Shown here: piece by piece, positions 2,671-26,068 of the stretch
Layout: every line of letters starts with the position of its first letter
How positions within the stretch are numbered: position 1 is the first letter of the stretch
Made by a program: the position numbers and the translations under genes
Notes under the pieces: generated by a model
The model's database searches: none
Seen by the model: the letters and a program-made list of their open reading frames with translations, nothing else
Told to the model about the DNA's origin: nothing
Origin: Anaerolineae bacterium
GTDB lineage: Bacteria > Chloroflexota > Anaerolineae > B4-G1 > DUEL01
DNA: 64,000 nucleotides
Assembly (NCBI GenBank): GCA_025060135.1
Contig: JANXCY010000012.1
Coordinates: 4,224 to 68,223, forward strand
Reading direction: 5' to 3'

Positions 2671-4530
2671 ATGATTTACTGTCCGAAATGCGGCACCGTC
2701 AATCGTCAGGGAAGCCGATTCTGTAACGAATGCGGAGCCCCGCTACCTGCAACGGGTATCCGCTGCCCCGCATGCGGCGCAACGAACCCGGCAGGCAATG
2801 TCTACTGCGACCGCTGCCACACCCGACTGGTCCCGGCCGAACCGCCTCCCCAGGAAGAGCGACCAGCGGAACGTCCTTCCCCGATCCGGGGAATATCCCT
2901 GCCCTCCATTTCCCCAACCAGGGAGGCCGCCGAAATACCAGAGTGGCTGGCCGAACTAAGCCCCGCCGCACCCACCGCACCGGAGGCCCCAACCCAGGCC
3001 GAAATACCAGAGTGGCTGGCCGAACTAAGCCCCACCGCACCCACCGCACCGGAGGCCCCAACCCAGGCCGAAATACCAGAGTGGCTGGCCGAACTAAGCC
3101 CCGCCGCACCACCAGGAGGCCCGTCCAAACCAGAGGTACCTCCTATATTCCCGGTGGCTCCAGAGCCTATCCAGCCCCTGGAAAAGCCTGCCTCTTCGGC
3201 AGAAGAGATTCCCGAATGGCTGAAAGACCTGGAACCCTCCCCCTTGCCTTCAGAAGGCTTATCGGTTCCCGTCCCGCCAGTGATGGCCGAGGCCACCTCC
3301 GCGCCTTCTCCCCCTCCACCGGCAGTGGTACCTCCGCTCATTCTGGAGGAAACGGAAATTCCCGCTCCTTCAGAAGCAGAGATTCCGGACTGGTTAAGAG
3401 AGGCAGAAAAAGAGCCGGCTGCGCCACCGATAGAGGCTGGCGGGCTGGTGCCTGCGGAAATTCCTGAATGGTTGCGGGCATTACAGCCCCGGGCGGAGAT
3501 GCCCGCTGAGGTAGAGCCAGTGGAGACAGAGGGATTCCTGGCTGGCCTGCGGGGACTCCTTCCGGTCGCCCGAGGGCTGGATAAGGTGTCCACCGCCGGG
3601 CCCTCTCTCCCCGTGGCGCCCAGCCCGGCCGCCGTTGCCCGGGCAGAACTCCTCCAGAGCCTGCTGTCCCGCCCCCTGGTTCTGCCCCACGCAGAAGCGC
3701 GAGAGGCTGTCCGGCGGGAAGGTTGGATGCTCACGCGCCTGCTGGTGGGATTGGTGCTCCTGGTCGCTATCGTGGCTCCGATGCTGGTCCAATGGCGTCT
3801 GTTTGGCCCTCCCCTCATTCCGACCGCCGATAACCTCTTTGCGCTGGTAGAAGGGATCGCTCCCCAAACCCCTGTTCTGGTGGCATGGGAATACGGGCCC
3901 GCCGAAGCCGAAGAGATGGATCGGGTCGCTGGCCCCCTGATGGACCATCTCCTGCGCCGCCAGGCCCGTCTGGTGATCGTGAGCACCCGTATGGAGGGGC
4001 CCGCGACGGCAGAAGCCCTGCTCACCTCCCGGCTGGCCGATACCCAGGAGCGCCTTCGTCGGGTCGCCAATCTGGGTTATATCCCCGGACAGGCCACCGG
4101 TGTACGGGAAGCCATTGGCAACCTAGATGGGCGAACTGAATGGGGGAGCGGTGCGCCAGCCGAGCAGATCGAAGCGATGGCCGGAGTCCAGTCGGTCGCC
4201 GATGTGGGTATGGTCGTGATCCTGGCCGCGCAGCCCGAAGACCTGCGCGTCTGGGTAGAGCAGGTATCCGCCACCCGACCGGATGTGCCCATCGTGGCCG
4301 GTATCAGTGCACGGGCAGAGCCCCTGATGGGGCCCTACCTGGCCGCCGGTCAGATTCAGGGGGCCCTCTCCGGATTGACCGGTGGCGCGGCCTATGAACA
4401 GCGACTGGATACTGGTCGGGGGCGGGAGTATGAATACTACCTGAACTCCCTGGGGCTGGCCCTATGGGCGGTTGCTGCTCTGACAGTGCTCGGGGCCCTG
4501 ATTTCTCTGCTGGGAGGACGGAAGCGATGA
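2671..4530 (+). CDS. double zinc-ribbon protein with a Pro-rich IPEWL-repeat region, one TM helix, a globular domain of about 220 aa and a C-terminal TM anchor
   Basis: The N-terminus has two zinc-ribbon pairs (CPKCG..CNECG and CPACG..CDRCH). Six (E/D)IP(E/D)WL motifs are embedded in a Pro/Ala-rich linker. One TM helix is LTRLLVGLVLLVAIVAPMLV and the C-terminal TM is LALWAVAALTVLGALISLLGG. The stop overlaps the next start (ATGA). Confidence 0.7.
   Translation: MIYCPKCGTVNRQGSRFCNECGAPLPATGIRCPACGATNPAGNVYCDRCHTRLVPAEPPPQEERPAERPSPIRGISLPSISPTREAAEIPEWLAELSPAAPTAPEAPTQAEIPEWLAELSPTAPTAPEAPTQAEIPEWLAELSPAAPPGGPSKPEVPPIFPVAPEPIQPLEKPASSAEEIPEWLKDLEPSPLPSEGLSVPVPPVMAEATSAPSPPPPAVVPPLILEETEIPAPSEAEIPDWLREAEKEPAAPPIEAGGLVPAEIPEWLRALQPRAEMPAEVEPVETEGFLAGLRGLLPVARGLDKVSTAGPSLPVAPSPAAVARAELLQSLLSRPLVLPHAEAREAVRREGWMLTRLLVGLVLLVAIVAPMLVQWRLFGPPLIPTADNLFALVEGIAPQTPVLVAWEYGPAEAEEMDRVAGPLMDHLLRRQARLVIVSTRMEGPATAEALLTSRLADTQERLRRVANLGYIPGQATGVREAIGNLDGRTEWGSGAPAEQIEAMAGVQSVADVGMVVILAAQPEDLRVWVEQVSATRPDVPIVAGISARAEPLMGPYLAAGQIQGALSGLTGGAAYEQRLDTGRGREYEYYLNSLGLALWAVAALTVLGALISLLGGRKR
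2921..3115 (+). repeat. 69-bp (23-codon) tandem direct repeat, about 2.7 copies with one mismatch between copies 1 and 2
   Basis: The unit gaaataccagagtggctggccgaactaagcccc(g/a)ccgcacccaccgcaccggaggccccaacccaggcc starts at about 2932, 3001 and 3070. It encodes the repeated peptide AEIPEWLAELSP(A/T)APTAPEAPTQ. Confidence 0.85.
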
Positions 4531-7333: not shown

Positions 7334-10300
7334 TTACCGGCGAGGGGCCGGAAGCCGGTACCATTCCTGGAGGCTCCGGACTTCCAGGGGATGCTGCCGG
7401 AGCGAACGGATAGCCTGAACCGCCGCGCTGGCCGCGGAGAGCGTCGTAGTGTAGGCCACCCCACAAGCCACCGCCGCCTTCCGGATGGCGCTCTCATCCG
7501 TATAGGCCCCCCGCCCCAGAGGAGTATTGATCACCAGGTCAATCAGGCCCTGCTCAATGTAATCCACCGCGTGGGGATGCCCCTCATAAACCTTGTTGAC
7601 CACTTCTACCTTCAAACCATGCCGCTGGAGATAAGCGGCCGTCCCACCCGTTGCCAGCAACCGGAAGCCCAACTCGGCCAGCCCCCGCGCGATAGGCACC
7701 AGGTTGGCCTTGTCGTTGTCGTTCACGCTGAGAAAGGCCGTCCCTTCTACCGGCAGCCGGTTCCCAGCCGCCATCTGCGCCTTCGCAAAGGCGAGCCCGA
7801 AATCATCGGCCATGCCCATCACTTCGCCGGTACTCTTCATCTCCGGGCTCAACAGGGCATCCACCTCCCGGAACTTAATGAAGGGAAGCACCACCTCTTT
7901 CACGAAGTACCCTTTGGGAACTGGCTCCCCGGTGAAACCCAGGTCCTCCAGCCGCTGGCCCATTATGACCTTCGTCGCCAGGCGGGCCAGAGGAACACCG
8001 ATGGCCTTGCTCACGTAGGGAACCGTCCGGGAGGCGCGGGGGTTCACTTCCAGGACGTACACGACGCCATCCTTCATCGCCATCTGGACGTTCATCAACC
8101 CGCGCACCTGCAGCGCTTCCGCCAGGCGATAGGTGTATTCCCGAATGGTCTGCAAGTGCTCCGGGGCGACCATGTAAGTGGGAATCACACAGGCCGAATC
8201 GCCGGAGTGAATCCCCGCCAGTTCGATCTGCTCCATAATGGCCCCGATGACGGCCCGCTCCCCATCCGCGATGCAATCCACATCCATCTCAAAGGCATCC
8301 TCCAGGAAGCGATCGATCAGCACCGGGGAGCGCGGGTCGATCTCTATGGCTTCCGCCACACACCGTTCCAGCGTGGCCTGGTCGTAGACAATGGCCATAG
8401 CCCGCCCGCCCAGGACGTAACTGGGCCGCACCAGCACCGGGTAGCCGATCCGGGCCGCGACCAGCCGGGCCTCCTTCACCGTCAGGGCGGTCCCGTGTTC
8501 CGGCTGGGGGATCTCCAGTTCCTTGAGAAGACGGCTGAACCGCTCCCGGTCCTCTGCCAGGTCAATGCTATCGGGGGGAGTCCCCAAAATCCGCACCCCG
8601 GCCCGGTGGAGGGGGAGCGTCAGTTTCAGCGGCGTCTGCCCCCCGAACTGGACAATCGCTCCCAGCAGATTCCCCCTTTGCTGCTCCGTCTCCACGATGT
8701 TGAGAACATCCTCCAACGTGAGCGGCTCAAAGTAGAGGCGGTCCGAGGTGTCGTAGTCGGTACTGACCGTCTCGGGATTGCAGTTGACCATGATGGCCTC
8801 TATGCCCATCTCCCGCAGGGCGAAGGCCGCGTGGCAGCAACAATAGTCAAACTCAATCCCCTGACCGATGCGGTTCGGCCCACTGCCCAGAATGATGACC
8901 TTGGGGCGGTCCGAGGGGTCGGCCTCGCATTCCGTCTCGTAGGTGGAATACAGATACGGAGTGTAGGCCTCAAACTCAGCCCCGCAGGTATCCACCCGCT
9001 TGTAGACCGGGCGAATCCCCAGAGCCAGCCGCCGCTGGCGGACCTGCCGCTCGCTGACGTCCCAGAAACGGGCCAATTGAGCGTCCGCAAAGCCCATCCG
9101 TTTGGCCTCCAGCAACTGTTCAGCGGAGACGGTATCCAGCCGGGTGGCCCGCAGCGCCTGCTCCATCGCCAGGATTTCGGCCATTTGCTGGAGAAACCAG
9201 GGGTCAACGGAGGTCAGAGCCGCCACCTCCTCCACGCTCATCCCCGTCCGGAGCGCGTAGTAGATATACAGCATGCGGTCCGGATTCGGCGTGATCAATC
9301 GCTGCCGCAATAGATGAGGGTTCACCCGTCGTTCATCTGCGACCAGGCCGATCAGGCCGCTTTCCAGGGAACGAAGCCCTTTCTGAAGGGCTTCTTTGAA
9401 GGTGCGTCCGATGGCCATCGCTTCGCCCACCGATTTCATCTGGGTGCCCAGCGTGTCGTCTACGCCCGGGAACTTCTCAAAGGCCCAGCGGGGGATTTTG
9501 ACCACCACGTAATCAATCGTCGGCTCAAAAGAGGCCATAGTCTCCCGGGTGATGTCGTTGGGGATTTCGTCCAGCGTGTATCCGACCGCGAGTTTGGCAG
9601 CGATTTTGGCGATGGGGAAGCCGGTGGCCTTGGAGGCCAGGGCAGAACTGCGGGAGACACGAGGGTTCATCTCAATGACCACCATCTGCCCGTTCCGGGG
9701 GTTGACGGCGAACTGGATGTTGGACCCTCCCGTCTCCACGCCGACCCGGCAGATGATGCGTCGGGCCCAGTCCCGCATCTGCTGGTACTCCTTATCCGTC
9801 AGGGTCTGGGCCGGGGCGACGGTGATGCTATCGCCCGTATGGACGCCCATCGGATCAAAGTTTTCAATGGGGCAGACCACGACGAAGTTGTCTTTGGCGT
9901 CCCGCATCACCTCCAGTTCGTACTCTTTCCAGCCCAGGACCGACTCTTCTATGAGCACCTGGTGCACCGGACTCTGGGAGAGCCCCCAGAGTACGGCGTC
10001 CCGGAACTCCTCCGGGGTCCAGGCGATACCTCCCCCGGTCCCTCCCAGCGTAAAGGAGGGACGAATAATCGCAGGGAGGCCGACTTCCTCCAGGACGCGC
10101 CAGGCTTCCTCCAGACTGGTAACCGTCGCGCTGCGAGGGGTGGGAAGGCCGATGTCGGTCATGGCGGCTTTGAAGAGTTCGCGGTCTTCGGCCACCCGAA
10201 TGGCTTCCGGACTGGCGCCAATCAGACGAACCCCGTATCGTTCCAAGACGCCTTTCTCGGCCAGGGTTACCGCCAGGTTCAGGCCCGTCTGTCCTCCGAC

Positions 10301-10567
10301 AGTGGGCAGAAGGGCATCGGGCCGCTCTTTGGCGATGATGCGCTCCACCACCTCCCATGTCAGCGGTTCAATATAGGTCCGGTCGGCAAACTCCGGGTCG
10401 GTCATAATGGTCGCCGGATTGGAGTTCACCAGGATGACGGTGTACCCTTCCGACCGGAGGGCCTTGCACGCCTGGGTGCCAGAATAGTCAAACTCGCAGG
10501 CTTGCCCGATGACAATCGGCCCGGAGCCGATGACCAGAATCCGGTGAATGTCTGTCCGCTTAGGCAT
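7334..10567 (-). CDS. carB: carbamoyl-phosphate synthase large subunit
   Basis: 1077 aa with two ATP-grasp halves. The N-terminus [38 protein letters not shown] is canonical. An MGS-like C-terminal domain is present. Confidence 0.97.
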
Positions 10568-11687
10568 GGCTCTTCTGCGCGTCCATTAAACGGGTGAATT
10601 CCTCAAAGAGGGCAACGGCATCGTGAGGGCCGGGCGACGCTTCGGGGTGGTACTGGACGCTGAACGCCGGAAGAGAGCGATGCCGTAGACCCTCTACAGT
10701 ACCATCATTGAGGTTGATATGGGTAACTTCCACATCGCCAGGCAGGGAATCGGGGTCCACCGCGAAGCCGTGATTCTGAGAGGTGATCTGGATTTTGCCG
10801 GTCGCCAGGTCTTTGACCGGCTGGTTGGCTCCCCGATGGCCGAACTTCAATTTGAACGTCTTTCCCCCGACGGCCAGACCCAGTAGTTGATGCCCCAGAC
10901 AGATGCCGAAGACCGGAACCCGTCCCAGGAGGTGGGCAACGTTCCGGATGGCATACGGGAGCGCCGCCGGGTCTCCCGGGCCGTTGGAAAGAAGAACACC
11001 GTCCGGATGCAGGGCCAGGACTTCCTCAGCGGGGGTCTCCGCCGGAACCACCAGGGCTCGGCAGCCAGCATCCACCAACAACCGGAGGATGTTCCGTTTG
11101 ACGCCGAAATCGTACACCACGACCCGATACCGGGGTTCATGCGGCGGTATCACGCGCCACTCTGGCGGCACGCCTTCGGTCCAGATATACCGCTCGGCGC
11201 AGGTTACTTCCCGTACCAGGTCCCGGCCCACCAGGCCCGGCGACGCGGCCGCTTTGCGGACCAGGCGCTCCTCATCCAGGTCCACGGTGGAGAGCACACC
11301 CTTCATAGCGCCGGCCAGCCGGATGTGGCGGGTAATCGCCCGGGTGTCCACTCCGGCAATGCCCACAATCCCATGCTCCTGGAGAAATGCTTCCAGGCTC
11401 TTCCGGGCACGCCAGTTGCTATATATGGGACTGAGTTCCCGAACCACGAAACCTTCTACCCACGGTCGCCAGGATTCCACGTCCGTCTCATTGACACCGT
11501 AGTTGCCAATATGGGGGTAGGTCATCACTACGATTTGTCCTTTGTAGGAGGGGTCGGTCAGGATTTCCTGGTAGCCGGTCATGCTGGTGTTAAACACCAC
11601 TTCACCAGCCACTTCGCCCCGGGCGCCAAACGCCCAGCCGTGAAAGACCCGACCGTCCTCCAATGCCAGAATGGCCCGATCGCGCAT
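10560..11687 (-). CDS. carA: carbamoyl-phosphate synthase small (glutaminase) subunit
   Basis: 375 aa. CarA N-domain plus a class-I glutamine amidotransferase with the catalytic Cys context GICLGHQLL. The stop overlaps the carB start by 8 nt. Confidence 0.95.
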
Positions 11688-11734
11688 GGGACCTCCTCAG
11701 CCAATGGATGTTGACGGTTTCGCTGCCATAACCC

Positions 11735-12739
11735 TTAATCCATGCACGCCACGATGGCCCGGGTGAACTCGCGGGTCGTGGCGGTGCCGCCCATGTCCGG
11801 GGTGAGGGCCTTGCCCTGGCGATAAGTTTCCAGGACCGCCTTTTCCACCCGGGCGGCCGCTTCGGTCTCTCCCAGGTAGGCCAGCATCATGGCGCCTGCC
11901 AGGATCAGCGCGGTGGGATTGGCGATGCCCTTCCCAGCGATGTCCGGCGCAGAGCCGTGGACCGCCTCAAAGACGGCGACCCCATCGCCAATATTGGCCG
12001 CCGGAGCCAGACCCAGCCCCCCCACCAGTCCCGCCGCCAGGTCCGAGACGATGTCGCCATAGAGGTTCGGACAGAGGAGCACATCGTGCCGCCCCGGGTC
12101 CAGCACCAGGTCCAGGCACAGGGCATCCACAATGCGCTCGCTATATTTCAAGTGCGGGTATTGGCCCGCCACTTCGCGGGCACACTGGAGAAACAGCCCG
12201 TCGCTCATCTTCAGGATGTTGGCTTTGTGGACGGCGGTTACCTGGCGGCGATGATGGCGGGTCGCGTAATCAAATGCGAACCGGGCAATCCGCTGGCTGG
12301 CCTGGCGGGTGATGCGCTTCACCGCGATCACCGTGTCGTCATCTATCCAGTGCTCCACGCCCGCGTAGAGGTCTTCCGTATTCTCCCGGATGATCACCAG
12401 GTCTACGGCGGGGTAGCGGGCCGGGACCCCGGGAATGCTCCGCACCGGACGCAGATTGGCGTAGAGGTCCAGCCGTTGCCGGAGCGCAACGGTAGCACTG
12501 GCGAAACCGCTCCCGACCGGTGTGGTGATGGGGCCTTTCAGCGCCACCCCGCAGCGGCGAATCTCCTCCACCGCTTCATCCGGTAGAGGGGTGCCGGTCA
12601 TTTCCATCGCGGCGATGCCCACCTCAAAGGGTTTCCATTCAATCTCCACTCCCGTGGCCGCCAGCACTGTCCGGGTGGCGTCCACGATTTCCGGCCCGAT
12701 GCCATCGCCGGGAAGGACGACTACGGTGTATCCGGCCAT
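11735..12739 (-). CDS. beta-decarboxylating dehydrogenase of the isocitrate/3-isopropylmalate/homoisocitrate family
   Basis: 334 aa with the family signature [27 protein letters not shown]. The NLYGDI variant is more typical of HICDH/NAD-IDH than of classical LeuB NLFGDI. It lies downstream of leuCD-type genes. Confidence 0.85.
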
Positions 12740-13236
12740 CGGAACCCTCCGTACCGCAGGACATGGGGAACCAATCCGCCGCTCTCCAGAATGGCCCGCA
12801 TCACCGGGGGGAGGGGACGGAAGGTCCGCTCCAGGTTGCGGGTGAGGTTGCGCACCCGGCCTTCTACCAGGTCCACCTCAATCTCATCTCCGGTCTCAAA
12901 GCCCCCGGTATCGCAAATGATGGGCATCAGACCCACGTTGACCGCATTTCGGAAGAAGATGCGAGCGAAGGAGGAGGCGATGACAGCGGCAATCCCCCGT
13001 TCCTTCAGGACCAGGGCGGCGTGTTCCCGGGAAGAACCCTGTCCGAAATTTTTTCCTGCGACCACGAAGTCGCCCGGCTGAGCGCTACGGGCAAACTCCG
13101 GATCGGCATCCTCCAGGGCATGTTCCGCTAAGGCCTGGAGATTCCCCCGCAGATGGTAATACCGGCCGGGGATGATGTGATCGGTGCTGATGCCGTCGCC
13201 GAATCGCCAGATCTTGCCTCGAAGGATTCTCTCCAT
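12721..13236 (-). CDS. leuD: 3-isopropylmalate/homoaconitate dehydratase small subunit (short archaeal-type LeuD/LysU)
   Basis: 171 aa aconitase swivel domain (GSSREHA, GDNIDTD-like DHIIPGRYY region). Placed 12 nt after leuC. Confidence 0.85.
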   Translation of the reverse strand: MERILRGKIWRFGDGISTDHIIPGRYYHLRGNLQALAEHALEDADPEFARSAQPGDFVVAGKNFGQGSSREHAALVLKERGIAAVIASSFARIFFRNAVNVGLMPIICDTGGFETGDEIEVDLVEGRVRNLTRNLERTFRPLPPVMRAILESGGLVPHVLRYGGFRWPDTP

Positions 13237-13248
13237 AGGTCTGCTCCT

Positions 13249-14496
13249 CTACAGGAATTCTCTCGGATCAGTAATCCGACCCCGGACCGCCGTAGCGGCC
13301 GCCGTGGCGGGCGAGGCCAGGTAAATTTCCGCCTCAGGGTTGCCCATCCGTCCCTGAAAGTTCCGGTTCTGGGTGGAAAGACAGCGCTCTCCATCTGCCA
13401 GGATGCCCTGGTGGACTCCAACACAGGCCCCGCATCCGGGGGGCAGGATGAGCCCACCGGCTTCTATAAAGATTTGGAGCCATCCTTCCTGAAGCGCGGC
13501 CAGATAGACCTCTCGGGACGCCGGGCAGACCAGGAGACGAACGCCGGGGTGGACCTGGCGTCCCCGCAAAATATGGGCGGCCATTCGAAGGTCCGAAAGC
13601 CGCCCATTGGTGCAAGTGCCAATAAAGACCTGGTCTATCGGCACATCTCCCGCTTCCTCCACGGGCCGAACGTTGTCCACAAAATGGGGGAAGGCGACCT
13701 GGGGAGAAAGGGAGGGGGCATGCAGTTCCACCCGGCGTTCGTAGACCGCATCCGGGTCAGGGGCCAGAGGTAGATAATCCTCCGCCCGTCCGCGCTCGGC
13801 CAAGAACTGACGGGTCTGCTCATCGGAAGCGCAGAGGCCTGTTTTGGCTCCTGCTTCTACCGCCATATTGCAGAGAGTCATCCGCTCCTCCACGCTCATG
13901 GCCGCGACGGTGGAGCCGCCGAACTCCAGGGCCTGATAGTTGGCACCGTCTGCGCCCAAGAGCCCAATCACGTGGAGAATCACGTCCTTCGCCATCACCA
14001 TGGGAGGGAGGGGCCCCTCCACTTCCACCCGAATGGTGGGGGGAATCCGCAGCCACGTCTCCCCCAGCGCCATGGCCACGGCAATATCGGTGGAGCCCAT
14101 GCCGGTGGCAAAGGCAGCCAGGGCCCCGGCGGTGCAAGTGTGGGAATCCGCACCCAGGATAATCTGGCCGGGTCGGGCCCACTGCTCGGCCACGATCTGG
14201 TGGCAGATGCCCTCGCCAGGCGGATAGAAGCGGGCTCCGCCTTCCTCGGCAAAGGTACGGAGCCGTTTCTGGACGTTGGCGAGTTCCCGGCGGGGTGCCG
14301 GTGCGGCGTGGTCGGAGAAGAAGAGGGTCTGCGTCGCCGGACGGGTTCTTTCCAGCGCGCTGAACCGGTCCAGAGCCAGGGGACCAGTCCCTTCGTGGGC
14401 CAGCAACAGGTCCACCGGAACCACCACGATGTCCTCTGCCCGGACCGTTTCCCCGAGGCGCCGGGAGATGATTTTCTCGGCTAGTGTAAGTCCCAT
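13249..14496 (-). CDS. leuC: 3-isopropylmalate/homoaconitate dehydratase large subunit (archaeal-type LeuC/LysT)
   Basis: 415 aa aconitase family. Fe-S ligand cysteines are in GTCTNGR and PGCGACVG contexts, and substrate-binding GADSHT is present. Confidence 0.9.
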   Translation of the reverse strand: MGLTLAEKIISRRLGETVRAEDIVVVPVDLLLAHEGTGPLALDRFSALERTRPATQTLFFSDHAAPAPRRELANVQKRLRTFAEEGGARFYPPGEGICHQIVAEQWARPGQIILGADSHTCTAGALAAFATGMGSTDIAVAMALGETWLRIPPTIRVEVEGPLPPMVMAKDVILHVIGLLGADGANYQALEFGGSTVAAMSVEERMTLCNMAVEAGAKTGLCASDEQTRQFLAERGRAEDYLPLAPDPDAVYERRVELHAPSLSPQVAFPHFVDNVRPVEEAGDVPIDQVFIGTCTNGRLSDLRMAAHILRGRQVHPGVRLLVCPASREVYLAALQEGWLQIFIEAGGLILPPGCGACVGVHQGILADGERCLSTQNRNFQGRMGNPEAEIYLASPATAAATAVRGRITDPREFL

Positions 14497-14530
14497 AGGG
14501 CAATCTCCTCCAGGATGAGATAGATGAAAG

Positions 14531-15682
14531 TCAGGTGAGCCGATGGTTGACCAGTTCGTGGTACAGCAGCATCAGTTCTTTATCAAAGAGCGGTCGTTTT
14601 AATTCCACGGCCGCCGCTCGCACCCGCTCCAGCAGGCGGCTGGCGGTGGCGCCATCCAGTTGAATGCCGAATTCGGTGTGGAACTTGTGGATCAGCGCGT
14701 GGGTTCCGGAGTGTTTCCCGATGACGATCTGCCGCTCCAGGTTGACCTCCTCGGGGCTGAACGCCTCGTAGGTGTGGGGGTGCTTGAGGATACCGTCGGC
14801 GTGGATCCCCGACTCGTGGGCGAAGATGGAACTCCCAATGATGGCTTTCCAGATGGGGATAGCCCGGCGGCTGGCTTCGGCGATGTACTCGGCCGCTTCC
14901 CGGAAGCGCGTGGTATCCACACCCAGGTCCACGCCATAGAGGTGTTTCAGCGCCATCACTACTTCCTCCAGCGGGGAGTTGCCGGTCCGCTCCCCCAGGC
15001 CCCCCAGAGAAGCAGCAACCGCCCGCGCGCCGGCCCGGAGGCCCATCAACACGTTGGCGGTCGCCATCCCGAACTCGTTGTGCATGTGCAACTGGATGGG
15101 GATGGAGACGGCCTGGCAAATATGCCGGATGTGCCGATACGTGGTGAAAGGGTCATTGACGCCCAGAGAATCACAATACCGGACCATCCGGGCACCCAGA
15201 GCCTCGGCCCGGCGGTAATACTCGATGAGGAAATTCATATCGGAGCGGGATGCGTCCTCTGCACTGACGATGAAGGAAAGGGACCTCTGTCGGGCCGCTT
15301 CGGCCGCTTCCTCCATGCGCTCCAGCACCCAGGAGCGGGTAGTGCGGAACTTGCGTTCAATGTGGATGTCGGAGGTGGAGATGGAGATCACCACCCCGTG
15401 GACCCCGCACTCCGCCGCGTCCATAATGTCGTCTCGGCGTGCTCGGGCAAAGGCGTAGACTTCCAGGGGTTGCTGGGATTCCCCTACCTGGAGGCCGGCT
15501 TCTACAATCGCCCGAATCGCCTCTTTCTCTTCCGGCCCCAGCGCTGGGAAACCCGCCTCCAGCGCGGGGATTCCCATATGAGCCAGATGGGAAGCGATCT
15601 GGATCTTCTCCCAGCGGGAGAAAATCACCCCCACCGCCTGTTCTCCGTCCCGCAGCGTGATATCCATCAGATGGATGTCCAT
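14531..15682 (-). CDS. short-form 2-oxoacid:acetyl-CoA condensing enzyme (NifV/CimA/LeuA catalytic-domain family, no LeuA regulatory domain)
   Basis: DRE-TIM metallolyase motifs LRDGEQ and HxH (HMHNEFG). Start corrected to the ATG of MDIHLMDITLRDGEQ, with an AGGAGG RBS 6 nt upstream. The ORF-track GTG start at 15700 would place codons over that RBS. Confidence 0.85.
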   Translation of the reverse strand: MDIHLMDITLRDGEQAVGVIFSRWEKIQIASHLAHMGIPALEAGFPALGPEEKEAIRAIVEAGLQVGESQQPLEVYAFARARRDDIMDAAECGVHGVVISISTSDIHIERKFRTTRSWVLERMEEAAEAARQRSLSFIVSAEDASRSDMNFLIEYYRRAEALGARMVRYCDSLGVNDPFTTYRHIRHICQAVSIPIQLHMHNEFGMATANVLMGLRAGARAVAASLGGLGERTGNSPLEEVVMALKHLYGVDLGVDTTRFREAAEYIAEASRRAIPIWKAIIGSSIFAHESGIHADGILKHPHTYEAFSPEEVNLERQIVIGKHSGTHALIHKFHTEFGIQLDGATASRLLERVRAAAVELKRPLFDKELMLLYHELVNHRLT

Positions 15683-15715
15683 GAGAATCCTCCTGGGCAC
15701 ATTGAACCCAAAGGG

Positions 15716-16894
15716 TTATTGCCTGGCCAGCATGCGATACTCTTCCACCACCTCCCGATCAAACAGCGACCGTTTCAGAGCAATGGCGCGGGACCGCAGG
15801 ATCGGTACCAGTCGTTGCAATTCCTCCTGGGTAGGATGGTAGCCATACTCCCGGAGTTTCTGGGCCACGACCGAGGGCCCGGAATATTTTCCCACGTTGA
15901 ACCGGCGGGAGAGTCCAACCTCTCCTGGGAGAAAGATTTCGTAGGTCGCCGGATCGCGTACCACACCGCTGGCCCGGCCTTCCGATTCGTAGATAAAGAG
16001 GTTGCTACCGACCACCGGCTTGGAAGGTGGAAGGGGCCTCCCGGAGGCCAGCGCGACATATTCCGAAAGTTCCCGCAGCAGGGAGGTCCGGAGCCCCAGG
16101 TTCACGCCTTCGCAGTACCGGAGGGCCATCACCAGTTCCTCCAGCGAAGCATTTCCAGCCCGTTCCCCCAGCCCGTTCACAGTCGTGTTCACGTAGGTGG
16201 CGCCGGCCTTCAGGCCCGCCAGTGCATTAGCCACTGCCATTCCGAAGTCGTTGTGAGTATGCATCTCAATCGGGATGCTGGCTTCGTCAACCAGAAATTT
16301 CACCCGCTTGTACGTCTCAAAGGGGTCCAGAACCCCCACCGTGTCGCAGTACCGGAGCCGGTCGGCTCCCGCTTCTCGGGCCGTACGGGCGAACTCCACC
16401 AGGAACTCCGGGTCGGCCCGGGAGGCATCCTCCGCGTTCACAGAGACGTAGAGGTTGTGGCTCTTGGCGAACTCCGTGGCCCGTTTCACCGCGTCCAGCA
16501 CCTGCTGTCGGGTGGAGCGCAATTTGTGCTGGATGTGGATGTCAGAGGCGGAGATGGAAAGAGCCACTGCATCTACTCCGCAGTCCAGGGAGTGGCGGAT
16601 GTCATCCACGACAGCCCGATTCCAGGCCAGGATACTGGTGGGAAGTTCCAGCCGGACGATGGCTTTGATGGCTTCTTTTTCATCTCCGCCCATGGCGGGA
16701 ATGCCCACCTCAATCTGGTGAACCCCCAGCAGGGCCAGCAGCCGGGCGATATGGACCTTCTCTTCGTTGGCGAAAACCACTCCGGCCGTCTGTTCCCCAT
16801 CCCGCAACGTAGTATCATCTATGTAGACCGGGTGCTGGATGGGAGAATGGAGCATTTCTTCTGGAGAATGTTCGTCTAATGGAAACGGGATCAT
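15716..16894 (-). CDS. second short-form 2-oxoacid:acetyl-CoA condensing enzyme (NifV/CimA/LeuA-like paralog)
   Basis: LRDGEQ and HTHNDFGMAVAN motifs. Start corrected to the ATG of MIPFPLDEH, with an AGGAGG RBS 6 nt upstream. It is a paralog of the adjacent gene. Confidence 0.85.
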   Translation of the reverse strand: MIPFPLDEHSPEEMLHSPIQHPVYIDDTTLRDGEQTAGVVFANEEKVHIARLLALLGVHQIEVGIPAMGGDEKEAIKAIVRLELPTSILAWNRAVVDDIRHSLDCGVDAVALSISASDIHIQHKLRSTRQQVLDAVKRATEFAKSHNLYVSVNAEDASRADPEFLVEFARTAREAGADRLRYCDTVGVLDPFETYKRVKFLVDEASIPIEMHTHNDFGMAVANALAGLKAGATYVNTTVNGLGERAGNASLEELVMALRYCEGVNLGLRTSLLRELSEYVALASGRPLPPSKPVVGSNLFIYESEGRASGVVRDPATYEIFLPGEVGLSRRFNVGKYSGPSVVAQKLREYGYHPTQEELQRLVPILRSRAIALKRSLFDREVVEEYRMLARQ

Positions 16895-16965
16895 CGTTGG
16901 CCTCCTGATGATAACCCTGCCCGGGCCGTATGGGCGGATCACGTCAGGCACCCGGTTGGGTCCGT

Positions 16966-18426
16966 TTAACCGAGAAAGCGTCGGAGAATGGCCGCGCGGG
17001 TGATCAGGTCGGTCAGTTGCATCACGTGATTCTGTTCCAGCGAACGGCGAATCCGGCGCACCAGTTCCAGATGCTCGGGGTGGGGCGAGAAAGAGAAACC
17101 GGCCTGTTCCAGCGCGGTGCGCAGGGACCGGGTCATAAAGGGCCCTTCCAGGTCGGTGAAGCCCAGCGCGGCGCGGATTTCTGCCCGGAAAGAAGGGTAG
17201 ACTTCGTCCAGAAAGGCCAAGTCGTCCGCGGTTAGAGCGTCAAAGGCGATCAGTTCCGGGGGCAGGCCCAGCGAGTACAGGGCACAGACAAAGGAAATGG
17301 CGCGCGGCAGCGTGATGCCGTTCATCTCGCGGGCGTAGCCAAACAGTCCGACATGCAATTTCCGCGTCCGACGAGGCGGCACGTATTGGGCCACATGATT
17401 AATATACGGAGCCAGTTCCGCGATTTGCTGCCGATAGGCCAGGCTATACCGCTCAATAATCGCCAGGGCGCGCTCGGTATCCACAGGCATGGCCTGGCCG
17501 ATTTCCCGGGTCCGGAGGTACTCACAGGCAGCCCGGACCTCCGGGACAGGATAATCATACTTAAAGGCGGACTGGATGGTAAAGGTAACCACACTCGGAT
17601 ATTCCTTCCCGACCCGTTCCACCGTGGGCGGCGACAAGCCCCCCCGGAATGGTGCCGCGCCCAGTCCGATGATCGGGTAGAAGCGTACACCGATGGATGC
17701 GGACAACTCGTCCAACCGGGCCAGCGCGATCTTATTCGCCAGTGCCGCTGCCACCAGTCCGTAGTTCATAGCGGTATCTGAGCGGGCCAGGAAGACCCGT
17801 TGTTCGCGGATCGGTTTATCGGCCAGATATTCTCTCATAATGTCGGCGGATCGCAGCAACGTGGGCACATCTTCAAATAGAGGGATCACCCCGATAGACG
17901 GGGGGGAGAATTCCCCAATCCATTCGGCAATGGTAATATCATCGTCCCGAAGACGAAGGTGCTGCCGTCCCACAATGTGGTTCATGTAGTAACGATACAC
18001 CCGGTCAATGCACCGGGCCGAGACCGTCATCGGGAGAATGACTTCAAAGATAGGGGCGACTCGGTCCTTGTAGAACAGTGAAGCCACATCGTAGGAACGA
18101 GGGATACTCTCCAGGGTCTCCAGGAGAATCTTGGCTTCCGCTTTCTCGACCAGCGGGTTCGGGACTCGCAGCGTGAGGCGTACATCCTGGCCCAGTACGT
18201 GGTCCTGAAAATACTCCGGATAGAACGAGAGGAGTTTCTTGACCACATATACATCAATTTCCTTGCCCTCCACATCCCACATCTGTTCATCGCATCCCAG
18301 ATGGGAGTAAGCATAGTACGCCTCGCGGACCTCGTCCTCTCCGGCCAGCACACTGGCGGTGGCAAAGAATGGTACCGTCGCGTTGTCAGGATGCTGAGTG
18401 CTCATACAGCGTGGGATAATGGACAT
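16966..18426 (-). CDS. archaeal-type phosphoenolpyruvate carboxylase (PepcA family)
   Basis: Start corrected to MSIIPRCMSTQHPDN, the hallmark N-terminus of archaeal-type PEPC, with a GAGGAG RBS 8 nt upstream. About 487 aa is typical for this family, against more than 880 aa for bacterial Ppc. Confidence 0.75.
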   Translation of the reverse strand: MSIIPRCMSTQHPDNATVPFFATASVLAGEDEVREAYYAYSHLGCDEQMWDVEGKEIDVYVVKKLLSFYPEYFQDHVLGQDVRLTLRVPNPLVEKAEAKILLETLESIPRSYDVASLFYKDRVAPIFEVILPMTVSARCIDRVYRYYMNHIVGRQHLRLRDDDITIAEWIGEFSPPSIGVIPLFEDVPTLLRSADIMREYLADKPIREQRVFLARSDTAMNYGLVAAALANKIALARLDELSASIGVRFYPIIGLGAAPFRGGLSPPTVERVGKEYPSVVTFTIQSAFKYDYPVPEVRAACEYLRTREIGQAMPVDTERALAIIERYSLAYRQQIAELAPYINHVAQYVPPRRTRKLHVGLFGYAREMNGITLPRAISFVCALYSLGLPPELIAFDALTADDLAFLDEVYPSFRAEIRAALGFTDLEGPFMTRSLRTALEQAGFSFSPHPEHLELVRRIRRSLEQNHVMQLTDLITRAAILRRFLG

Positions 18427-18481
18427 ATCCAGGCTCCTCTCTAACGGCTTTCGGTGGCATCCTGGCTCCCGGTGCACCGGA

Positions 18482-19378
18482 TTAACGGTGGGCGCCGGTG
18501 TGATTCATATTGGAGAGCCCTGGACTCTCCAGTGGAGAGAGGGGGCGGGGGCGTCCAGCACCCACCATCTCTCCCAGCAGTTTGGATTTCTGATAGGCAG
18601 CCCAGACGGCTTTGGAGATGACCGTACGCAGCCCCCCTTTCTCCAGTTGGTAGATGGCCTCGGCGCTAGTGCCGCCCGGGGAGGTTACCATGTTGCGCAG
18701 TTCGGCCAGATGTTTGCCGGACTCGCGCGCGAAGAGTGCCGCTCCGATCACCGTCTGGGTTACCAGTTCCTGGGCAATACGGCGGGAGAAGCCCAGATGA
18801 ACCGCCGCATCTACCAGCGCTTCCATCACCAGGAAGACATACGTGGGGCCGGTCCCGCTAACGGCCGTGGCCATATCAATACTGTCTTCATCATGGACGG
18901 ATAACTCTTTGCCCAGCGCGCTCAACAGCCATCGGGTCTGTTCCTGTTGCGCTTCGGTTACCGCTGGCGTGGCGGTCCAAACGCTCATGCCCTCCCCGAT
19001 TTGGGCCGGGGTGTTCGGCATCACCCGGACGATGGCTTCGTGGTTCAATGCCCGCGCGATGTACTCAATGCGGGCCCCCGCCACGATGGAGAGAACCAGT
19101 TGCTCGGGTCGGATCGTCCCCGCCAGTTCCACCAGCACCAATGGCAGGACCTGGGGCTTGACGGACAGCACCACAATGTCGGCGGCCCGGGCAGCCTCCC
19201 GGTTATCCGTGGTCCAGCGGATGCCATACCGCTGGTGGAGTTCCTCTCCCCGTTCGGGACGAGGACCACTGGCAATGATGCGCTCCGGGGTGATTAGGTG
19301 ACGGTGGAGCAACCCCCGGATCATCGCTTCGGCCATCGTCCCACTCCCAATGAAGGCTAAAGTGGTATCGTGAAGCAT
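18482..19378 (-). CDS. proC: pyrroline-5-carboxylate reductase
   Basis: Rossmann motif AFIGSGTMAEAM and the ProC C-terminal dimerisation domain (SPGGTS, AI..LE). Start set at the ATG of MLHDTTLAFIGSG, in frame with the track ORF. Confidence 0.85.
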   Translation of the reverse strand: MLHDTTLAFIGSGTMAEAMIRGLLHRHLITPERIIASGPRPERGEELHQRYGIRWTTDNREAARAADIVVLSVKPQVLPLVLVELAGTIRPEQLVLSIVAGARIEYIARALNHEAIVRVMPNTPAQIGEGMSVWTATPAVTEAQQEQTRWLLSALGKELSVHDEDSIDMATAVSGTGPTYVFLVMEALVDAAVHLGFSRRIAQELVTQTVIGAALFARESGKHLAELRNMVTSPGGTSAEAIYQLEKGGLRTVISKAVWAAYQKSKLLGEMVGAGRPRPLSPLESPGLSNMNHTGAHR

Positions 19379-19425
19379 TCGATGCCTCCCGGCTGGCTGG
19401 ATGGGCACTCAGATGCTACCGGTTA

Positions 19426-20658
19426 CTAATGGTCATGGGACCTGGCCGCGTGCGGGACCCGGGTCTCCAGGCTTTCATATCGTTTGGCTTTCATCCGTTC
19501 AGGATGAAAGCCATCTCCCCACTCCCGAAGGAGGGTATCCACGTCATCCAGTGTCAGCGGCTTCTCATCGGCCAGGGCCTTAATGTGAGCGGTAACTTCC
19601 CGAATCTGCTCTGGGGTTAGATGCAGGCCCAGTTGTTCCGCGCGCCATTTGACGGCATTCCAGCCGGTGAACCGATGGGCGATAGAGATATACCGGGAAA
19701 GCCCGAATTCGGTCGGATCAATGATTTCATAGGTGCTGGGCTCGTTGAGAATGGCCTTAGCGTGAATACCGGCTTTATGGGTAAAAGCCGTGATCCCTGT
19801 AATGTAGTTATTGAAAGGGATGTCCACACCCACGAATTGGGCCACCATCTCGTCCAGTTTCTTTAACATTTTCAGGTTATACTTGCGCACCAGGTTGGGG
19901 TCCAGTGCATACAGCCGGGCGATCAGTCCGCCCAGGGGGGTAATACCGTTCCGCTCCCCGATGCCCAGCACACTGGTGTCCACGTATTGAGCGCCGGCCA
20001 GGAGCGCTGCGTAACTGTTGGCGATGGCACATCCCGAATCATTGTGGCCGTGGAATTCCACGGCGGCGCGCACCCGCTGTTTGAGGGCGCGCACCAGGTC
20101 GTAGACCTCAAACGGTGTAGCGACCCCCACCGTATCGGCGATGCCCACCCGATGGATATCCATTTTGTCCACTTCGGAATACACCTGAAACAGGTCTGCG
20201 CGGGCGCTCCGGAACGAGTCCTCGGTGCTGAAGCGCACTTCCAGTTCGGGCCGCTGCTCCTTAATGAAAGCGATCACTTCTATCGCCTTCTCAATGATCT
20301 GGGGAATGTCCCAGCCGTGGGAGAACCGGCGCAACGGCAGGCCGATTCCGATGACAATGTCAATGCCGTGAAGGCCCTCAATCTCCATCGCGCGGGCGGC
20401 ATCTTCCCGATTACAGCGAATATGGGTGAGAATCCGAGCCCGCAACCCCAGGCTGGCAATCATCTGGAGGTCCCGGTAACTCCGGGGGGAGACGACCGGT
20501 GAGGTCAGTTCCAGATACTCCACGCCGAACTCGTCCAGGGCACAGGCAATGTCAATCTTCTGGCCCGTGGTGAAACTGGCTCCCACAAATTGCTCTCCTT
20601 CTCGCAGGGTGGATTCTATGATATAGAATTCGCGAATCGCCGGTCGCTCTTCCTCCAT
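19426..20658 (-). CDS. homocitrate synthase-like enzyme, Lys20/Thermus-HCS type (2-oxoglutarate:acetyl-CoA condensing enzyme family)
   Basis: Start corrected to [24 protein letters not shown], with a GGAGGTG RBS 7 nt upstream. It aligns closely by eye to Thermus/fungal homocitrate synthases ([25 protein letters not shown]). The 79-codon ORF-track extension actually covers the promoter and terminator hairpin. Confidence 0.85.
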
Positions 20659-20683
20659 CGTGCACCTCCATTTGGGGAAAGGT

Positions 20684-20724
20684 ATAGGTATACAAAAAGG
20701 CCGACTCTCGTGCTCTAGAGAGTC
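20684..20724 (-). terminator. intrinsic-terminator hairpin (attenuator) in the 5' leader, 26 nt upstream of the homocitrate synthase start. It is bidirectional.
   Basis: Perfect 11-bp stem GGCCGACTCTC/GAGAGTCGGCC with an 8-nt loop. It is flanked by AAAAA on the plus strand (= UUUUU on the minus-sense RNA) and TTTT on the other side. Confidence 0.6.
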
Positions 20725-20885
20725 GGCCTTTTGGGAATAATCAGATGCAACCATATTTACCCTGCGGCGCGCAAACTCCCCAGAGCCCTGGCCCAGGGAC
20801 CCTGCTTCGGTCGCGGCTTCTGAGGGGTGCGCAGGTTGTACGCCAACATCTCGACTGCTGACTGGCGCCAATGGAGTTTGGCGCT

Positions 20886-20914
20886 TATATACCACACTTC
20901 TTGGAATTTGTCAA
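20886..20914 (-). promoter_or_regulatory. near-consensus sigma70 promoter TTGACA-17-TATATA for the homocitrate-synthase leader
   Basis: On the minus strand: TTGACAaattccaagaagtgtggTATATA. This gives a roughly 220-nt leader containing the terminator hairpin. Confidence 0.55.
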
Positions 20915-21188
20915 GGGGCATACGCTGGCCACCCTGGGGAAGGAAAGAAGGCAAGAGAGGCGTCTCGGATTCGGCTGTGGATGCAGGCTCGACAGCACCT
21001 GCAGCCTCGGCTGACGCAGGATCGGCGCTCCAGAAGGCCGGGAGGAGCAGTGGGACAGGACAAATAACACCAGTAAACAGGCGAGAGGATGAGTGATTAA
21101 AAAACGGTATCGGACGATGCAACATGGGGTTCATCGCCCGTCCAGATCGGAAAAAACGAAACGCTCTTCAGCCCTCATTATCTATAAT

Positions 21189-21602
21189 CTATGCGACGAG
21201 ATGTTTCTGGTCATACTGCTGGATGCCCCAGATGGCTGTCCGCCGGAGCCACTGATAGGCACTGAGAACCTGCTGAGGCAACAGACCCCCGTCGTAAGGG
21301 AGAGAATAATCCAGGACAATGCCCTCAGGGAACGCCCAGGCCCGCAGGAAGACCACATTCTGGTTCAGCGCGTTAGTGAACTCCAACTGATCCTGAAAGA
21401 GGGTGCCGCTGCGCCAGCCGAAGAGAAGAAAATAGGTCAGCAGCTGTTTGTCCTCTTCTACAGAAATAAAGATTTTGATTCCCCCTTCGGTTACACAGAC
21501 CTTATCATCGGGTGTCAACGTGGCGGTGATATACGCATCGTCAAAAATCGCTTTGATAGTTTGAGGAGACACCTCTTCCGGAGATAATACACGCTCGTTC
21601 AT
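21189..21602 (-). CDS. YbjN-like protein (putative T3SS-chaperone-like / sensory-transduction-regulator fold)
   Basis: Start corrected to MNERVLSPEE, with a GGAAGGAG RBS 5 nt upstream. 137 aa. The similarity to the YbjN family is by motif pattern only (alternating hydrophobic beta-strand signature) and is weak. Confidence 0.45.
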   Translation of the reverse strand: MNERVLSPEEVSPQTIKAIFDDAYITATLTPDDKVCVTEGGIKIFISVEEDKQLLTYFLLFGWRSGTLFQDQLEFTNALNQNVVFLRAWAFPEGIVLDYSLPYDGGLLPQQVLSAYQWLRRTAIWGIQQYDQKHLVA

Positions 21603-21782
21603 CGGGCTCCTTCCATATCGGGGGGTCACACCAGCATCTTCGGAAAGACCTTGATCGGTGAGGGACGAAAACACGAGGAAGAAGCAGAAGGCTTTTCCAG
21701 AAGGGTGTGCCAAAGAGTATTATACCCTGTTCGGGAGAAGTGTCAAGCAGGGTGAGCCTGAGGGGTAGTTGTCGCCCTCCGG

Positions 21783-25475: not shown

Positions 25476-25520
25476 ATAGGTCTTGACCTATCAGTATAAC
25501 GCAGATGGGAGATTTGTCAA
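25476..25520 (-). promoter_or_regulatory. relA promoter TTGACA-16-TATACT. A 7-2-7 inverted repeat ATAGGTCttGACCTAT lies immediately downstream of the -10 and is a candidate operator.
   Basis: On the minus strand: TTGACAaatctcccatctgcgtTATACTgATAGGTCaaGACCTAT. The palindrome spans 25476-25491. Confidence 0.4.
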
Positions 25521-25539: not shown

Positions 25540-25577
25540 TTGACATATCCGCCTGTTCCACTATACTTGTGAACAGG
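25540..25577 (+). promoter_or_regulatory. promoter TTGACA-16-TATACT for the YbjN-family gene, with a 7-bp inverted repeat (CCTGTTC ... GAACAGG) bracketing the -10
   Basis: ggcTTGACAtatccgcctgttccacTATACTtgtgaacagg. It is divergent from the relA promoter about 20 nt away. Confidence 0.4.
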
Positions 25578-25606
25578 TACACCATTTGCCAGAAAGGAGC
25601 ATCCGC

Positions 25607-26068
25607 ATGTTGTCTACTGGTCCCATCTTTGATACTATGGTACGCTTTTTTCAAGAGGACAACTGGTACTTTGAACAGTTGCCCGGGAAGCCCATCCTCC
25701 GACTGGGCTTCCGAGGGGAGAACGGTACCTGGTACTGCTACGCACAGGCGCGCGAACCGCAACACCAGTTCGTCTTCTATTCCATTCTGGATGTGAACGT
25801 TCCTCCCAACCGCCGTCAGGCGATGGCCGAATTCCTCACCCGCGCGAACTACGGCCTGGTCATCGGGAACTTTGAGATGGACTTCAACGACGGCGAGGTC
25901 CGGTACAAGACCAGTATTGACGTGGAGGGGGATCGCCTAACCCCGGCGCTGATCAAGCAGATGGTCTACATCAACGTGTTGATGATGGACCGCTACCTGC
26001 CGGGGATCATGAAGGTGGCCTTTGGCAACGTGGATCCGGCTCGGGCAATTGCTGAAATTGAGGGGTAA
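25607..26068 (+). CDS. YbjN-family protein (putative bacterial sensory transduction regulator / chaperone-like)
   Basis: Start corrected to MLSTGPIFDTM, with an AGGAG RBS 7 nt upstream. 153 aa with the typical YbjN pattern (NWYF..L, RGENGTWYCYAQA..., VRYKTSIDVEG). Confidence 0.7.
   Translation: MLSTGPIFDTMVRFFQEDNWYFEQLPGKPILRLGFRGENGTWYCYAQAREPQHQFVFYSILDVNVPPNRRQAMAEFLTRANYGLVIGNFEMDFNDGEVRYKTSIDVEGDRLTPALIKQMVYINVLMMDRYLPGIMKVAFGNVDPARAIAEIEG

Follow-up and report, generated by a model that had tools for sequence, protein, structure and literature searches.

Homocitrate synthase gene and leader

The 64,000-nt stretch of the Anaerolineae contig JANXCY010000012.1 analyzed here (hereafter the window, to which all coordinates refer unless another contig is named) encodes on its minus strand a homocitrate synthase (HCS) at 19426..20658, a protein of 410 aa with Pfam matches to HMGL-like and HCS_D2. 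The coding sequence is preceded by a leader containing a promoter, a short upstream open reading frame (uORF) and the hairpin of a predicted intrinsic terminator. This leader is read here as a ribosome-mediated leader-peptide transcription attenuator controlling HCS and the same-strand genes that follow it, an interpretation that we hold to be probable, if well short of assured. HCS orthologues with 72-80% identity sit within lysX-lysY-lysZ-HCS operons of the LysW-type alpha-aminoadipate (AAA) pathway, indicating that the window gene is a genuine lysine-pathway homocitrate synthase. The window protein is 100% identical to an NCBI entry titled "MAG: homocitrate synthase [Anaerolineae bacterium]" (MAG, metagenome-assembled genome; P0001), which at 403 aa is 7 residues below the 410-aa model; the deposited start codon has probably been set too far downstream, the 410-aa start lying 6 nt after a GGAGG sequence (window 20637..20658). 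An identical Logan contig (L001) carries the same 410-aa call, with a 530-nt gap upstream in which no gene was called. A 489-aa HCS model starting from a GTG at 20895 was rejected as an open-frame artefact. Its frame is open in the window only and is closed by stops in most relatives, and together with the 410-aa call on the identical contig this bears out the original prediction, made from the letters of the sequence, that the 79-codon N-terminal extension was wrong. Longer HCS homologues were also checked for N-terminal extensions hinting at similar leaders, and their extra length was found to be mostly C-terminal.

The promoter, read directly from the minus-strand sequence, consists of a TTGACA -35 hexamer at 20914..20909 and an extended -10 element, TGGTATATA, at 20894..20886, in which the TATATA hexamer (20891..20886) is immediately preceded by TGG, a TGn extension, and is separated from the -35 hexamer by a spacer of 17 nt. 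Placed by promoter spacing only, the transcription start site (TSS) would fall near 20879 and the leader would be ~221 nt in length. The predicted terminator spans 20694..20732 (minus strand) and comprises a tract of four A residues, an 11-bp GC-rich stem, an 8-nt loop and a tract of five U residues, with the 5' arm GGCCGACTCTC at 20728..20718, the loop TAGAGCAC at 20717..20710, the 3' arm GAGAGTCGGCC at 20709..20699 and the five T residues at 20698..20694. A GC-rich stem-loop followed by a U tract on the transcribed strand is the arrangement expected of an intrinsic terminator, and the A4/U4 flanks could lengthen the stem from 11 to 15 bp. The computed free energy of the hairpin is -26.3 kcal/mol at 37 C and -14.3 kcal/mol at 65 C, and the ~190-nt transcript as a whole folds better than shuffled sequences (z = -2.45). 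A Shine-Dalgarno sequence, GGAGG (20669..20665, minus strand), begins 24 nt past the T tract and serves the HCS ATG at 20658..20656. All of these elements are present as the original prediction had read them, namely a TTGACA-17-TATATA promoter with a leader of ~220 nt on the minus strand, and a perfect 11-bp GC-rich hairpin with U5 followed by GGAGG and ATG.

An automatic scan listed no promoter-like site between the terminator and the HCS ATG, from which it follows that HCS depends on read-through. The same scan listed neither the leader promoter nor the terminator; the promoter was missed because the scan demands T at position 6 of the -10 hexamer, and the terminator probably because its stem was extended into the A and U tracts, leaving too few T residues in the tail.

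Conservation of the leader

Six distinct versions of the leader were collected, via protein homologues, from related Chloroflexota contigs: that of the window (identical to L001), L003, L002 (the same leader as in L016), L021 (as in L022 and L023), L024 (as in L025 and L026) and L028. The HCS proteins of L003 and L002 are 91% and 84% identical to that of the window, and those of L021, L024 and L028 belong to the 90%-identity cluster of the L002-type HCS (P0003), being 89-94% identical to P0003. The promoter (CTTGACAAATT…TGTGGTATATAA), three internal blocks, the terminator, and the ribosome-binding site (RBS) with its ATG are unchanged across the six. The -35 hexamer is identical in 6/6, as is the block TGTGGTATATAA around the -10 hexamer; 100% of cells in the terminator stem are paired, with a single change from U-A to U-G; and the pattern GGAG(G/A)T-N6-ATG is kept throughout. 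The spacers between these blocks differ in sequence and length, and the DNA upstream of the -35 hexamer is unrelated between versions, with called ORFs that vary in both length and distance. HCS is the gene downstream of the leader in 6/6, at a terminator-to-RBS distance of 24-65 nt. The attenuator geometry that had been pointed out before HCS is conserved together with the gene in all six versions, and the hairpin and leader, on whose presence in related genomes the original prediction had staked its case, are found there.

The same comparison bears on the extremely unlikely alternative that the hairpin terminates an upstream gene, either the YbjN-like gene that ends at 21189 (ORF 21189..21713) or a 125-aa ORF at 20757..21134, or that it acts as a bidirectional insulator. 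The A4 and U5 flanks could work on both strands, and the 125-aa ORF ends 25 nt before the A tract and 28 nt before the GC stem. However, the upstream gene is separated from the hairpin by a conserved promoter, the hairpin stays where the DNA upstream of the -35 hexamer is wholly different, and no plus-strand gene converges on it; a terminator belonging to an upstream gene is contradicted by the comparative data and was rejected. The 125-aa ORF was likewise rejected as a gene, having no Pfam match, no call on the identical contig and no conservation over its 5' two-thirds, with conservation ending upstream of the -35 hexamer. Two gene models are corrected, the 79-codon N-terminal extension and the 125-aa ORF both being spurious. 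Most of the latter is held by a pyrimidine-rich spacer of ~270 nt (20915..21188, minus strand) that extends from the YbjN-like gene to the -35 hexamer, is strongly skewed in both GC and AT and lacks conservation in relatives.

The genes after HCS in L021 and L024 lie on the opposite strand, so that HCS appears to be monocistronic in these contigs and no other gene is constantly associated with the leader; the HCS genes of the window and of L016 head a long run of same-strand ORFs. In L004, L006, L008, L018 and L020, where HCS is an inner gene of a lysX-lysY-lysZ operon, no leader is found directly before it. A genome-collection scan with the HCS protein returned L002 as the sole relative. An exact-pattern scan of JGI metagenomes with CCTCAGAANNNNCGACCGAAGNNGG produced 8 matches, 7 of them chance occurrences in unrelated sequence and the remaining one L016, indicating that the exact leader motif is rare. 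A search of the window with two core blocks found no second copy of the leader.

Competing RNA helices

Four segments of the leader can be assembled into three competing helices. Segment 1 (20819..20833, minus strand) provides the 5' strands of two stems, P1 (UGCGC, 20833..20829) and P2 (CCUCAGA, 20825..20819). Segment 2 (20768..20786, minus strand), which is invariant in the six versions, consists of GCUCUGGGGAG (20786..20776) and GCGCG (20772..20768). Segment 3 (20713..20728, minus strand) is formed by the terminator 5' arm (20728..20718) and the 5' half of the loop, UAGAG (20717..20713), and the 3' arm of the terminator serves as segment 4. In the 1:2 helix, UGCGC pairs with GCGCG and CCUCAGA with UCUGGGG (20784..20778). 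In the antiterminator, 2:3, which is absent from the original prediction and was identified here, GCUCUGGGGAG pairs with the 3' end of the terminator 5' arm and the 5' half of the loop; its core is the pairing of CUCUGGGGAG (20785..20776) with CUCUCUAGAG (20722..20713), the latter being the last five bases of the 5' arm followed by the first five bases of the loop, and it can be extended across the whole 5' arm, giving a pairing length of 10-19 bp. The terminator itself, 3:4, is the pairing of the 5' arm with the 3' arm.

For the window, L003 and L002, respectively, the computed energies are -23.8, -26.1 and -29.7 kcal/mol for the 1:2 duplex, -27.0, -21.7 and -27.7 kcal/mol for the 2:3 duplex, and -26.3, -25.9 and -23.8 kcal/mol for the 3:4 terminator. 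When the helices are folded locally, 1:2 equals or exceeds 2:3 in stability in 4/6 versions, the exceptions being the window and L003, for which 2:3 is ahead by ~1-2 kcal/mol at 37 C; 2:3 in turn equals or exceeds 3:4. At 65 C all three helices are stable, with 1:2 the most stable in every version. RNAalifold, applied to the six versions, recovers the three helices, with 92-100% of cells paired as against 26-56% after displacement of the partner by 1-3 columns; the individual values are 94-96% for P1 and P2, whose pairs are nearly all invariant, and 92% for segment 3 with segment 2. The best partner of the terminator 5' half within the upstream leader is segment 2 in 6/6 versions, and the energy of this pairing was matched by 0, 21, 0, 1, 4 and 3 of 500 dinucleotide shuffles in the six versions, which places the antiterminator complementarity above chance. 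The loop of the terminator is conserved in its 5' half (YAGAG/A) and variable in its 3' half, as would follow from the pairing of the 5' half with segment 2 in the antiterminator.

If the unit were an independent gene for a small RNA (sRNA) or small protein, with HCS expressed from elsewhere, the conserved ability of segment 2 to pair with the terminator would serve no purpose. A promoter followed by a ~185-nt RNA and a strong terminator does have the anatomy of an sRNA gene, and terminated attenuator leaders can act in trans, as in the case of rnTrpL (PMC12612679), which is counted in favor of this possibility. Against it, the unit is always situated 24-65 nt before the HCS RBS in the six versions, with no promoter-like site listed between, and the C-terminus of the peptide is frame-shifted in L021, so that no conserved protein would be encoded. 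An independent sRNA or small-protein gene is on these grounds very unlikely.

The upstream ORF

The uORF is located at 20757..20849 (minus strand) and contains 30 codons followed by TAA. Its ATG, frame and stop site are kept in 6/6 versions, the ATG falling at +27 to +31 and the aligned stop being UAA in five versions and UAG in L003. It is the only ATG-initiated ORF of at least 15 codons that is common to 6/6, the other frames having stops in most versions. A short ORF upstream of a terminator, as a leader-peptide attenuator possesses, is in this way maintained in every version. Indels flank segment 1 at either end, and their lengths are divisible by three. In L021, the invariant GCUCUGGGGAG is preceded by an indel of +2 and followed by one of +1; the block is consequently read as GLWG and not as GALGS, with the RNA sequence unchanged, and past the second indel the ORF is back in frame and closes at the common TAA. 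This compensated frameshift implies that segment 2 is kept as RNA and that the ORF is kept for its translation, not for its protein, and points to selection on the act of translation rather than on the peptide sequence. Taking three frame-keeping net indel events and one stop-preserving substitution, the probability of such maintenance by chance would be ~0.01, a rough figure and not a formal test.

The predicted peptides are MTHLCTPRNPQNPRPKKETLKGALGSARGRQG in L002, MVHPCMPRNPQKPRLKKGEPSKGLWGARAAGIE in L021 and MTYLCTPRNPQKPRPEKESPEGALGSARGGRE in L024, from which that of L028 differs by one change. Across the versions, 2-4 of the 30-33 codons are AAG codons for Lys. Those of the window are codon 11 (20819..20817), which is the last codon of segment 1, and codon 15 (20807..20805), located 12 nt downstream. 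The L021 peptide, with Lys at 4/33 codons (P = 0.011), is the only one that stands out in Lys content.

Leaders of the L002 type (L002 ~115..135, L024 ~330..350) have a small 5' hairpin, GCUUA…UAAGC or CUUGC…GCAAG, that abuts the AUG of the uORF, at the place where the window leader has a GGCGCC palindrome. This hairpin could modulate initiation at the uORF or stabilize the 5' end of the transcript.

Proposed attenuation mechanism

Taken together, the conserved sequence elements, the maintained ORF and the energies of the three competing helices suggest the following course of events. A strong constitutive promoter would start a leader of 221 nt at the predicted TSS, and this leader would encode a 30-codon peptide, presumed to be translated, in which the Lys codons AAG-11 and AAG-15 are placed, respectively, on the 3' border of segment 1 and a short way past it. 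If translation were unhindered or absent, segments 1 and 2 would pair (UGCGC..CCUCAGA with UCUGGGG..GCGCG), this helix being the first to form during transcription; segment 3 would then be free to enter the 3:4 terminator, and transcription would stop ~35 nt before the HCS start codon. If charged tRNA-Lys were scarce, the ribosome would stall at the Lys codons and cover segment 1, and this stalling would decide the fold, allowing the 2:3 antiterminator to form and RNA polymerase to read into HCS.

Footprint modeling is consistent with this scheme in part of the versions. The switch folds were computed on transcripts cut before the 3' arm of the terminator, as the equilibrium fold of the full leader always keeps the terminator. 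With Lys-11 in the A site, a ribosome footprint of 28 nt covers +46..+73, which includes all of segment 1, and segment 2 begins at +94. Footprint-masked truncated transcripts of the window and L003 adopt the 2:3 fold. Mutually exclusive helices with codons placed to mask one of the strands are thus seen clearly in the window and L003 and ambiguously in L002.

The sensed amino acid is probably Lys and possibly Arg or Pro. Antitermination induced by lysine starvation is favored, by analogy with the Thermus hcs leader and with trp-type attenuators; Arg, Pro or mixed sensing is possible, as proC and putative carA and carB genes are in the same operon and Pro and Arg codons are prominent in the uORF.

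Several observations weigh against this interpretation. HCS has GGAGG, but none of the versions shows a convincing Shine-Dalgarno sequence before its uORF. Lys accounts for 2/30 codons in the window against a background of 2.7%, which is not significant alone (P = 0.19), and these two codons are not in tandem. Pro (4-5 codons) and Arg (3-4 codons) are as prominent as Lys, Pro being at least as enriched. The stop codon of the uORF is located 17 nt past segment 2, so that a terminating ribosome would not be on the segment-2 core, and re-formation of 1:2 after passage of the ribosome must be assumed. The Lys codons of L002 are further from segment 1, and its masked equilibrium fold gives no antiterminator; the truncated transcript of the window favors 2:3 even in the absence of a ribosome, which makes the default state dependent on folding kinetics. 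All six versions are from close relatives (HCS at least 84% identical) and represent few independent lineages. Finally, the comparative leader alignment that the original prediction had proposed did uncover the antiterminator pairing but yielded almost no covariation, the paired segments being invariant, and the structures therefore rest on conservation and energy. Such near-absence of covariation is expected, because each segment has two partners as well as a coding role.

A second way of operating the same RNA would be as a riboswitch or factor-dependent attenuator, in which the interior of the 1:2 hairpin (…GCCGCGACCGAAGCAGG…) is a small aptamer or a protein or tRNA site, occupancy of which would stabilize 1:2 and favor the terminator, the uORF being incidental. 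This is unlikely. The three competing helices would suit an expression platform equally, the uORF lacks a good Shine-Dalgarno sequence and is only weakly enriched in Lys, and the block CGACCGAAG inside the 1:2 hairpin is largely conserved. The remainder of the hairpin interior varies, however (CCG to CUG, AAG to GAG, a 2-nt indel and different loops), and an RNA-only element gives no reason for the frame, start and stop of the ORF to be kept via compensating indels; the JGI metagenome scan, moreover, turned up a single further instance of the core, from the same lineage. No Rfam family was matched at the gathering score in the whole window or on the six related loci, and a search of 20500..21300 at E values up to 10 returned only weak, hairpin-driven chance matches to microRNA and small nucleolar RNA models. 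The models for the L-box (RF00168) and T-box (RF00230) were without a match in the window at the gathering score, in 20500..21300 at E up to 10 and in the relatives, in agreement with the earlier statement that no core of either type could be recognized. Candidate ligands for a compact aptamer would be lysine, 2-aminoadipate or other glutamate-family metabolites.

The original prediction had suggested an attenuator or riboswitch with a possibly different or undescribed mode of sensing, and had described the 30-codon uORF, with its two Lys codons and poor RBS, as weak. The uORF is present as described; its downgrading is not supported, given that it is kept in 6/6 versions, and neither is the suggestion of other sensing, as the Lys codons lie in or adjoin the segment whose masking would free the antiterminator. 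The conserved uORF and the placement of its Lys codons lead back to the Thermus- or trp-type mechanism that had been cited and then set aside, and the uORF is the best-supported sensor.

A parallel leader in a related genome

The more distantly related Anaerolineae MAG GCA_054008255.1 (L029) encodes an HCS that is 76% identical to that of the window, as the tenth gene of an operon with the order argG-argH-lysW-lysX-lysX-lysY-lysZ-HCS×3-lysJ-…. Inside the 377-nt gap upstream of this operon is a leader (3243..3421) that is unrelated in sequence to the window leader. It begins with a TTGACA-17-TATATT promoter (3243..3271) and ends in a putative terminator, CGGTCGGG-AGTTAA-CCCGACCG followed by T7 (3392..3421). 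Its uORF, MTCCRMPHFYPRKRTVVG, has 18 codons and starts ~4 nt from the predicted TSS, making it nearly leaderless; the peptide includes a basic P-R-K-R stretch, in which Arg codons flank the single Lys codon. Segments 1 and 3 of this leader are near-repeats of each other (ACGGUGGUCGGG and ACGGUCGGG), as are segments 2 and 4 (CCCGAACCGU and CCCGACCG), and these near-repeats create competing 1:2, 2:3 and 3:4 helices. In the computed folds, masking of the R-K-R codons keeps the antiterminator and masking of the stop codon destroys it.

The L029 leader resembles that of the window in its promoter, basic-codon uORF, terminator and helix logic, and in its control of an operon containing the orthologous HCS; it differs in that the uORF stop comes right after segment 1, a canonical trp-like layout. 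By analogy, this parallel supports the use of leader-peptide attenuation for lysine and arginine genes in the lineage, related genomes meeting the same need with unrelated leaders of equal logic.

The two peptides can also be compared with respect to a nascent-peptide sensor, in which the core R-x-P-Q-K-P-R-P-K would arrest the ribosome upon a free metabolite, in the manner of TnaC or SpeFL, and thereby mask segment 1. The RNA logic would be the same as in amino acid-dependent stalling, and the conserved part of the peptide is its Pro/Arg-rich N-terminal half (PRNPQKPRP in one form). Such a sensor is nonetheless quite unlikely: much of the codon conservation is already explained by RNA pairing, given the overlap with segment 1; within the motif, P is found replaced by L, and K by E or N; and the L029 peptide has only the P-R-K-like stretch in common. 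That either the conserved R-x-P-Q-K-P-R-P-K arrest peptide or a compact aptamer inside the 1:2 hairpin functions as an undescribed metabolite sensor is improbable; if true, this sensor would control a 2-oxoglutarate/lysine/proline/arginine supra-operon in thermophilic Chloroflexota.

Genomic neighborhood

The same-strand genes after HCS are proC, an archaeal-type phosphoenolpyruvate (PEP) carboxylase gene and two more HMGL-like synthases (15716..16951 and 14531..15700, minus strand), one of which might be a Re-citrate synthase. HMGL-like gene trios are also present in the relatives L004, L006, L008 and L029. Further same-strand ORFs are aconitase-like large and small subunits and an isocitrate/isopropylmalate dehydrogenase-like gene, and the ORFs at 10560..11687 and 7334..10567 are read as carA and carB. 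Pfam support covers HCS, proC, the PEP carboxylase and the two HMGL-like genes, the other names having been read from the translations. As a whole, 7334..20658 (minus strand) is a long same-strand cluster that resembles a 2-oxoglutarate/lysine/proline/arginine supply operon. A tblastn search of the window with the LysX, LysY, LysZ and LysJ proteins of relatives found only weak LysX (ATP-grasp) matches in the 1077-aa ORF at 7334..10567, and the second half of the lysine pathway is absent from this window.

Other promoters of a similar kind are found nearby. A perfect 12/12 TTGACA-16-TATAAT promoter is located at 21719..21746 (minus strand) before the YbjN-like gene, and a divergent pair of 11/12 promoters, at 25493..25520 (minus strand) and 25540..25567 (plus strand), is located between a relA/spoT-like gene and the ORF 25586..26068, which by eye is also YbjN-like. 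Consensus sigma-70-type promoters seem to be usual in this genome.

Comparison with known systems

Leader-peptide attenuation is textbook biology in Proteobacteria, and no general concept is altered by the leader described here, which matches no Rfam family and would be of a well-known kind. To our knowledge, regulation in Chloroflexota is almost unexplored, and we know of no lysine attenuator for the AAA pathway other than that of Thermus. In this setting, the leader is a testable candidate for the element by which an uncultured lineage of Anaerolineae regulates AAA lysine synthesis at its first committed step.

The L-box likewise places lysine-pathway genes under a 5' leader ending in an intrinsic terminator, but the window leader is too short for the five-helix L-box and carries a conserved uORF instead. 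With the enterobacterial attenuators (trpL, hisL, leuL, thrL, pheL and ivbL) it shares the 1:2/2:3/3:4 architecture, regulatory codons in or next to segment 1, a predicted intrinsic terminator just before the first structural gene, and the prediction of super-attenuation when the leader peptide is not translated. It differs from them in having few regulatory codons (2-4 Lys), a stop codon that comes past segment 2 and not between it and segment 1, and no Shine-Dalgarno sequence on the uORF; no sequence or covariance-model similarity was detected to the enterobacterial leader families Trp_leader, His_leader, Leu_leader and Thr_leader.

Tsubouchi et al. reportedly described, in J Biol Chem in 2005, a lysine leader-peptide attenuator upstream of hcs in the AAA lysine cluster of Thermus thermophilus. 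The host there belongs to the Deinococcota and here to the Chloroflexota (Anaerolineae), and an independent origin is assumed. The peptide of the window leader is about twice as long as that reported for Thermus, its Lys codons are three codons apart and not in tandem, and segments 1 and 2 are both inside the uORF. In both cases the leader is located directly upstream of an AAA-pathway homocitrate synthase and contains a short ORF with Lys codons followed by terminator and antiterminator alternatives, and read-through would be expected when lysine limits. By analogy only, the Thermus hcs leader appears to be the closest functional analogue of the leader described here.

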